Shown: piece by piece, positions 45,321 to 45,762 of the stretch | Layout of the letters: the number at the start of each line of letters is the position of its first letter | Numbering within the stretch: the first letter of the stretch is position 1 | NCBI RefSeq assembly: GCF_003018115.1 | Contig: NZ_CP027457.1 | DNA length: 64,000 bases | From: Escherichia coli | Lineage (GTDB): Bacteria; Pseudomonadota; Gammaproteobacteria; Enterobacterales; Enterobacteriaceae | Strand: one strand, 5' to 3' | Made by a program: the position numbers and the translations under genes | The notes under the pieces: model-generated | Told to the model about the DNA's origin: nothing | Databases searched by the model: none | The model's input: only the letters and a program-made list of their open reading frames with translations

Positions 45321-45762
45321 TACATTATTCTGTCTTATTAATTGAAAATCATTTCTCGCTTTATTATCCATGCAGCAATAATGTTTTGCGTTCAGATAAC
45401 CTGCTAAATAATTAAGAGCGTGAGAACATCTATTTTTTTATCACGCAAAACAAGTCTGTATTAATTATGTTCGCTTGATGAGCAAACACCGTTCTATCTG
45501 TTGCTTTTGCAATCTTAATCGTTAAAACTACCAACGAATTTATATAGTTACGTTGTGAAATGTTGTTAATTTTTTGTTTATTGAAATTTCGTAAAAATAG
45601 CCAGATAGACATCGTATAGGGTTTATTCTTATAAATTTCACCTGTTTTCTATCAATGATGTCGTTTTTTTAAGAATGGAGGAAATTATTAAAGAAGATAA
45701 AGCATAAAACTATTTCTCCCAGTTACGAATTTTTTAACATTGTTTTGTCACTTGCGTTATTA

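Follow-up and report, generated by a model that had tools for sequence, protein, structure and literature searches.

What does a stretch of about 440 bp of very AT-rich DNA do directly upstream of sslE (yghJ)? An initial annotation of the locus described it as a long leader with no ORF of note and took it for a heavily regulated, possibly H-NS-silenced and temperature-responsive promoter of the sslE/T2SS-beta locus. In the window, which here means the whole 64-kb stretch of DNA that was analysed, the tract occupies 45321-45762. It is 442 bp long and has a GC content of 0.287, compared with 0.522 for the window overall. Taken over every 442-bp segment of the 64 kb, GC content averages 0.522 with a standard deviation of 0.048, and the tract lies about 5 standard deviations under this mean. 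The minimum (0.283) starts at 45335, within the tract, and the 64 kb contain no more AT-rich stretch of that length. The length and composition given in the initial annotation are thus confirmed.

The limits of the tract are exact: it runs from the end of the glcA terminator to the last base before the sslE ATG. The genes and signals around it are as follows.

43596-45278: glcA, an intact ORF of 560 aa with its stop at 45278 (ORF list)
45286-45316, + strand: intrinsic terminator hairpin of glcA, with a 12-bp stem, 6 G-C pairs and a 7-nt loop (terminator scan)
45763-50322, + strand: sslE (yghJ), lipoprotein metalloprotease (ORF list and PGAP annotation of strain F9792)
50649-62413, + strand: pppA, gspS-beta (yghG/aspS), gspC-gspL and yghD (gspM) (annotation transferred from F9792)

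The sslE ATG is located at 45763 and the product begins with MNKKFKYKKSLLAAILSATLLAGC, a lipoprotein signal peptide. The best-matching record is that of strain F9792, with 99.7% identity across 38.8 kb, in which sslE is annotated and is followed by a complete T2SS-beta. The alignment of the window with F9792 over these 38.8 kb has one 1-bp gap; in F9792 glcA carries the annotation of a frameshifted pseudogene (record 18398-20079), and in the window it is intact (43596-45278, 560 aa). The terminator was also detected as an inverted repeat (45282-45297 and 45305-45320, 94% complementary). Every E. coli allele and E. albertii have it. It bounds the AT-rich tract upstream, and besides it no repeats were found in the tract. 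The arrangement of glcA stop and terminator, tract and sslE ATG, with an intact T2SS-beta operon downstream, places the tract in the orthologous position, and sslE is the first operon gene under control of the region 45321-45762.

Firstly, the tract could be a gene rather than a regulatory region. Three ORFs of at least 30 aa touch it:

45293-45415, + strand: ORF of 40 aa
45430-45612, - strand: ORF of 60 aa
45540-45641, - strand: ORF of 33 aa

Together with two tiny upstream ORFs in the leader (ATGATGTCGTTTTTTTAA at 45655-72 and an ATG that overlaps a conserved GGAGG at 45675-81), these could point to a small protein or small RNA, so far unannotated, as the product of the tract. All three ORFs, however, are interrupted by stops or are without their stop in the orthologous region of E. 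albertii. The 60-aa ORF has in addition lost its stop in several E. coli alleles through an indel in a T-run, and the ATG of the 10-codon upstream ORF is absent in E. albertii. The tract gave no Rfam matches at E<=0.1 and, at E<=10, only chance hits, mostly to the terminator hairpin; apart from the terminator it is free of repeats, and no stable fold was seen. We therefore consider a small protein or small RNA extremely unlikely, and the description of the tract as lacking an ORF of note holds.

The regulatory reading finds much support in earlier work. In the account that Tan et al. give of ETEC H10407, sslE (yghJ) and 13 downstream genes form one transcript, and this 14-gene sslE-gsp operon is repressed by H-NS and StpA at 22 °C relative to 37 °C. 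According to the same account both proteins bind the sslE promoter region, StpA more tightly than H-NS, and open-complex formation is blocked (Yang et al., 2007, J Bacteriol 189:142, as summarized in Tan et al., 2016, PMC5012682). Repression by H-NS at 22 °C was confirmed in UTI89 and EC958, in which deletion of hns raised sslE mRNA about 3.5-fold and about 2.2-fold, respectively, at this temperature (Tan et al., 2016, PMC5012682). At 37 °C the deletion increased sslE mRNA 7.2-fold in EC958 and only 1.7-fold in UTI89 (PMC5012682). Since H-NS repression at 37 °C is strain-dependent, the expression level of the allele in the window is not quantitatively predictable from its sequence. Fis and TypA were identified as positive regulators of sslE, and TypA altered transcript levels (PMC5012682). 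The AT-rich, curved topology of the region was confirmed with BEND-IT for UPEC alleles (PMC5012682). In E. coli W, SslE was secreted only at 37 °C in rich medium (DeCanio et al., 2013, PMC3707838), and yghJ appears in a list of genes that match primary and secondary H-NS motifs several times (Lang et al., 2007, PMC2094087). The phrase 'yghJ promoter' gave no literature match, and the mentions of yghJ in PMC6009659, PMC6847712 and PMC3153253 are reference-list entries or concern yghE.

These results were obtained on nearly the same sequence. The yghJ promoter of H10407 and of UTI89/EC958 is the same locus with essentially the same sequence, with glcA upstream and sslE-pppA-gspS-gspC..M downstream, and it differs from the window by allelic variation only. 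Compared with H10407, 8 of the 484 intergenic positions differ, and the core promoter and Fis block (45460-45535) is identical. Identity to UPEC alleles is 95-97%. We regard it as very probable that the E. coli sslE-pppA-gspS-gspC..M (T2SS-beta) operon is controlled in cis by the tract, with silencing by H-NS/StpA and activation by Fis. The proposal of a heavily regulated, H-NS-silenced and temperature-responsive promoter had thus been borne out by others (PMC5012682) before this analysis, and the regulation of the region, published in 2007 and 2016, is textbook-level knowledge for the locus. That work, on near-identical alleles, showed that H-NS/StpA bind, that temperature has an effect, where transcription starts and that F2 (a cluster of Fis sites, see below) is required; the analysis described here provides the composition, the identity of the allele, the mapping of the cloning primers and the conservation pattern.

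How the tract is divided depends on the start site. The primers used to clone the UTI89 promoter (PMC5012682) map to 45279-45298 and 45547-45568 with 2 mismatches each and match the ST95 allele exactly. In a lacZ vector that lacks a promoter of its own the cloned fragment (pQF50-sslE) gave about 410 Miller units, and the start site found by 5' RACE in UTI89 is the same as that of H10407 (PMC5012682). As the active fragment ends at 45568, the start must lie at or before this position and the 5' UTR must be at least 195 nt long. Upstream of the start, three mutually overlapping Fis sites were described 'between positions -41 to -68', a short distance before the -35; three point mutations in this cluster, F2, reduced promoter activity to that of a fis mutant. 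The single site F1, centred at -138, was dispensable for activation in reporter assays (PMC5012682).

This geometry can be used to place the start on the window. Every 15-mer of the UTI89-like ST95 allele was scored by rules for Fis sites. Shao et al. are said to require -7G, -3R, +3Y and +7C, with no -4A and no +4T. For +1 we required a 4/4 site centred at -138 together with three overlapping 4/4 sites within -41 to -68. In the ST95 allele 45536 is the single position that fits the whole published geometry, and three overlapping 4/4 sites occur only at F2. Because 45536 was derived from this geometry and not from the published figure, +/- 2 nt must be allowed. The resulting assignment, of which we infer the exact +1, -10 and -35 coordinates, is:

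45321-45500: upstream AT-rich regulatory DNA, GC about 0.31, from about -215 to -36, delimited by composition and inside the active reporter fragment
45390-45404: putative Fis site F1, GTTCAGATAACCTGC, centred at -138, with 4/4 critical positions and no exclusion base
45469-83, 45473-87 and 45480-94: Fis region F2, three overlapping 15-bp sites that together span 45469-45494 (-67 to -42)
45501-45506, + strand: predicted -35 element TTGCTT (-35 to -30), set by the deduced +1
45507-45523: spacer of 17 bp between the predicted -35 and -10
45524-45529, + strand: predicted -10 element AAAACT (-12 to -7)
45536, + strand: probable transcription start (+1), the unique fit to the Fis geometry
45536-45762, + strand: probable 5' UTR of sslE, about 227 nt, GC 0.26

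All four predicted Fis sites (F1 and the three of F2) are intact in the window. Position 45488 (-48, in F2) is the only difference between ST95 and ST131 in the conserved block. This agrees with the one change in F2 that is stated in PMC5012682 and therefore gives independent support for the placement of +1. At this position the window has the common A, as has EC958/ST131, and UTI89 has T. The base at 45536 itself is G in the window and in ETEC1747 and A in K-12, H10407, ST131 and ST95; it accounts for one of the 8 differences from H10407, the other seven being outside the core.

The promoter predicted in this way is weak, with 6/12 consensus matches, and a consensus scan of the region found no strong sigma-70 promoter (3.1 expected in shuffles). 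A different start could be considered. TATAGT at 45543-45548 matches the -10 consensus at 5/6 positions and was at the top of a relaxed scan (9/12 with a 15-bp spacer). It would give a start at about 45555, which is still within the active reporter fragment that ends at 45568, and the operon could then be driven mainly or additionally from there, with 45536 wrong or secondary. With +1 at 45555, however, there is no Fis site centred at -138 and only one candidate within -68..-41. The -35 partners of TATAGT are poor, or the spacer is 15 bp. Moreover, in E. albertii TATAGT is GGGATAAT-like and differently placed, whereas TTGCTT and AAAACT are conserved and improved. As the mapped promoter TATAGT (45543-48) was rejected because of the misfit to the published Fis geometry, and we consider it improbable that it is the main or an additional promoter of the operon.

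With +1 at 45536, the tract would be split into about 215 bp of upstream promoter and regulatory DNA and about 227 bp of transcribed leader. Judged by its base composition, 45321-45500 would be the upstream part of the region bound by H-NS/StpA. The initial annotation was therefore right that the leader is long (about 227 nt by our placement of +1, and at least 195 nt), but the leader does not take up the whole 440 bp, of which about 215 bp would be upstream promoter DNA. A short leader behind a constitutive promoter, the outcome that would have spoken against a regulated promoter, does not agree with these lengths.

The conservation pattern was examined in the available alleles. The -35 and -10 hexamers are invariant in 7 Escherichia coli-type alleles. 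Among six E. coli-type alleles the number of variable sites per 100 bp is 2.6 in 45460-45535, 12.2 in the distal upstream part and 9.7 in the leader. Identity to E. albertii is 77-83% in the promoter block and 87% around F1; it is lowest in the middle of the leader (50-67%) and rises again near the start codon. The hexamers of E. albertii, TTGATT and AAAAAT, are nearer to the consensus than TTGCTT and AAAACT. This pattern fits a constrained promoter flanked by AT-rich DNA that would be flexible in sequence and constrained in composition, as H-NS platforms look.

Which property of the tract could H-NS and StpA recognize? The region has a high AT content over several hundred bp that span the promoter, as expected of the H-NS/StpA-silenced class. 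The H-NS 10-mer tCGATAAATT is not enriched in the tract: there is one hit at <=2 mismatches, and 404/500 shuffles had as many or more. This motif is not obligatory for H-NS binding, since no stringent H-NS consensus has been defined (PMC5012682). Thirteen A/T tracts of at least 4 bases are phased at about 10 bp (R=0.57), and a wedge model places the tract in the top 0.02-1% of window segments for curvature; its parameters serve for comparison within the window only. The predicted maximum of the tract is at 45586-45735, inside the leader. Predicted curvature is not clearly above that of composition-matched shuffles, of which 37/300 were as curved as the tract, and is thus probably in large part a consequence of composition. 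The strongest predicted curvature of the whole window is found elsewhere, at 3842-4103, with an end-to-end/contour ratio of 0.70 over 150 bp.

The extent of the silencing region also bears on the role of the leader. Sequences from -321 to +301 were reportedly needed for full repression in the work of Yang et al. With +1 at 45536 this span would run from about 45215 to 45836 and take in the whole tract and a bit of both flanking genes, and it agrees with leader DNA as a downstream silencing element.

Related arrangements are found at other H-NS-controlled promoters. The virF thermosensor of Shigella/EIEC is said, after Falconi et al. and Prosseda et al., to be bound by H-NS at two sites that flank an intrinsic bend and to be antagonised by Fis. 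It shares with sslE a virulence-associated promoter, AT-rich DNA that is bent in virF and predicted to be curved in sslE, H-NS repression below host temperature and Fis as a positive factor at sites overlapping the H-NS region. The two differ in that sequence and genomic context are unrelated, and in that for sslE StpA is reported to be the tighter binder (Yang et al., 2007, as summarized in PMC5012682). In proU (proV) and bgl, silencing draws on AT-rich DNA on either side of the start (PMC2094087), which resembles the layout proposed for sslE. Unlike in these systems, the 10-bp high-affinity H-NS motif is not enriched in the window beyond composition. The signals are also different: osmolarity and beta-glucosides for proU/bgl, and temperature and growth phase for sslE.

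In the mechanism that we propose, a weak sigma-70 promoter would lie midway in about 440 bp of DNA with 26-31% GC. At ambient temperature H-NS and StpA would occupy the AT-rich DNA, with its predicted curvature, to either side of the promoter and keep the open complex from forming. In this way sslE and the whole secretion system would be silenced, and the repression would be lifted at 37 °C. During fast growth Fis would bind the three overlapping sites at -67 to -42 (45469-45494) and approximately double transcription, with TypA also acting positively. The downstream 227 bp would be transcribed as a long, AU-rich and poorly structured 5' UTR. We infer that the leader probably acts mainly as DNA, forming the downstream portion of the platform to which H-NS binds.

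The T2SS-beta secretes the heat-labile toxin of ETEC, and SslE is both a mucinase and a vaccine candidate; given these roles, a switch that turns them on at body temperature matters for pathogenesis. To this the window contributes only another allele, plus coordinates for the promoter, the Fis sites and the start site. The gain is that the tract can be assigned as half promoter platform and half 5' UTR.

A leader of this length (at least 195 nt, and about 227 nt with +1 at 45536) could also exert post-transcriptional control of its own, beside H-NS. No recognisable purine-rich Shine-Dalgarno sequence was found upstream of the sslE ATG, and the minimum free energy structure contains one long helix that would mask the start codon and could act as an RNA thermometer or translational gate:

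45568-45584, + strand: leader segment AAUUUUUUGUUUAUUGA (speculative), +33 to +49, that pairs with the start-codon region 45760-45776

The helix consists of 17 contiguous A-U/G-U pairs, and the start region has a paired probability of about 0.9. A helix of at least 17 bp occurred in only 3/1000 dinucleotide shuffles, a test that was made post hoc. All E. coli alleles examined keep this helix, and two polymorphisms in its 5' arm (45569 and 45580, both A>G) preserve pairing. The positive regulator TypA, moreover, is a ribosome-binding GTPase (PMC5012682). Several results speak against such control. Dinucleotide shuffles fold as stably as 45536-45800 (265 nt; z=0.25), an Rfam match is absent, and the energy of the duplex was equalled or bettered in 37/1000 shuffles, a marginal value that likewise comes from a post hoc test. 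About 8/17 positions of the arm would tolerate a transition, which gives a chance of about 22% of seeing two compatible changes and takes weight from the two polymorphisms. In E. albertii 5/17 pairs are broken without compensation, and the best duplex between leader and start region there uses another segment. Over 22-42 °C the start region is predicted to stay equally paired. Furthermore, temperature was reported to act on transcript levels in an hns-dependent manner, and TypA too affected these levels (PMC5012682). An RNA thermometer is thus unsupported by the fold (z=0.25), by the predicted melting over 22-42 °C, by the loss of the helix in E. albertii and by Rfam, and post-transcriptional control by the leader beside H-NS seems unlikely.

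The narrower proposal that the 227-nt leader adds a translational layer, in which the predicted 17-bp helix would sequester a start codon that has no Shine-Dalgarno sequence, has a slim chance of being correct, and we treat it as a hint and not as a finding. If it were true, it could explain differences in SslE levels between strains with almost identical promoters, and also the emergence of TypA, a ribosome-associated GTPase, among the regulators. DNA-level silencing remains the role that we prefer for the leader. Within the leader, GGAGG at 45677-45681 is shared by E. coli and E. albertii without variation. It lies about 80 nt before the sslE ATG and can pair with UUUCUCC downstream (45712-45720). 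The block CATAAAACTATTTC at 45700-45713 is likewise invariant.

A search of genome contigs for the N-terminal coding pattern of SslE returned only E. albertii, one Escherichia sp. and one misbinned 1-kb contig, and these few contigs give little depth for covariation analysis. The 1-kb contig (JAIJJM010000973.1, 1032 bp, from a 'Collinsella sp.' MAG) contains a near-verbatim E. coli sslE leader and 5' coding sequence and is most likely a misbinned Escherichia fragment.

Within E. coli the region is widespread. A 701-bp query (45200-45900, comprising the glcA 3' end, the spacer and the sslE 5' end) was compared with 5426 complete E. coli genomes and found a match in 4368 of them, always between glcA and sslE; in 4086/5426 it was matched over at least 80% of its length. 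As some genomes match only up to about 45320, this position could be regarded as the edge of a horizontally acquired island, which we rejected. The two genomes without the region that were inspected have IS-associated deletions, and partial gsp genes are left in both. In CUVET17-1136 an IS4-associated deletion has its junction at about 45320, and in LCP30S3_I3 a separate IS1-associated deletion starts from 45267; each has removed sslE and part of the gsp operon. For these two genomes absence is therefore secondary loss and does not mark an island edge. The spot just 3' of the glcA terminator (about 45315-45320) has been struck by mobile elements in other strains, and in soil isolate SC455 a copy of IS200C at this spot has left the sslE promoter region intact.

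The window contained a few further features. sslE and pppA are separated by 326 bp, in which a 133-bp unit with REP-like palindromes GCCGGATAAGGCG is present in 2.3 tandem copies (50324-50624). These repeats gave sub-threshold matches to Rfam naRNA4 (33-37 bits, compared with a gathering score of 59.5) and look like an ordinary BIME/REP cluster within the operon. Two other islands are strongly AT-rich (GC about 0.30), at 20958-21413 and at 34298-34748, the latter between the divergently oriented yghO and a pseudogene of a fatty acyl-AMP ligase. Either could be an additional target of H-NS. An accessory cluster is located upstream of yghO at about 25200-34290 (annotation of the F9792 record, 1-9087). 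It encodes an LPS biosynthesis protein, extra lptF/lptG, a serine palmitoyltransferase (spt), an acyl carrier protein, an epimerase and a fatty acyl-AMP ligase with an internal stop, a sphingolipid-like lipid set that is unusual for E. coli.
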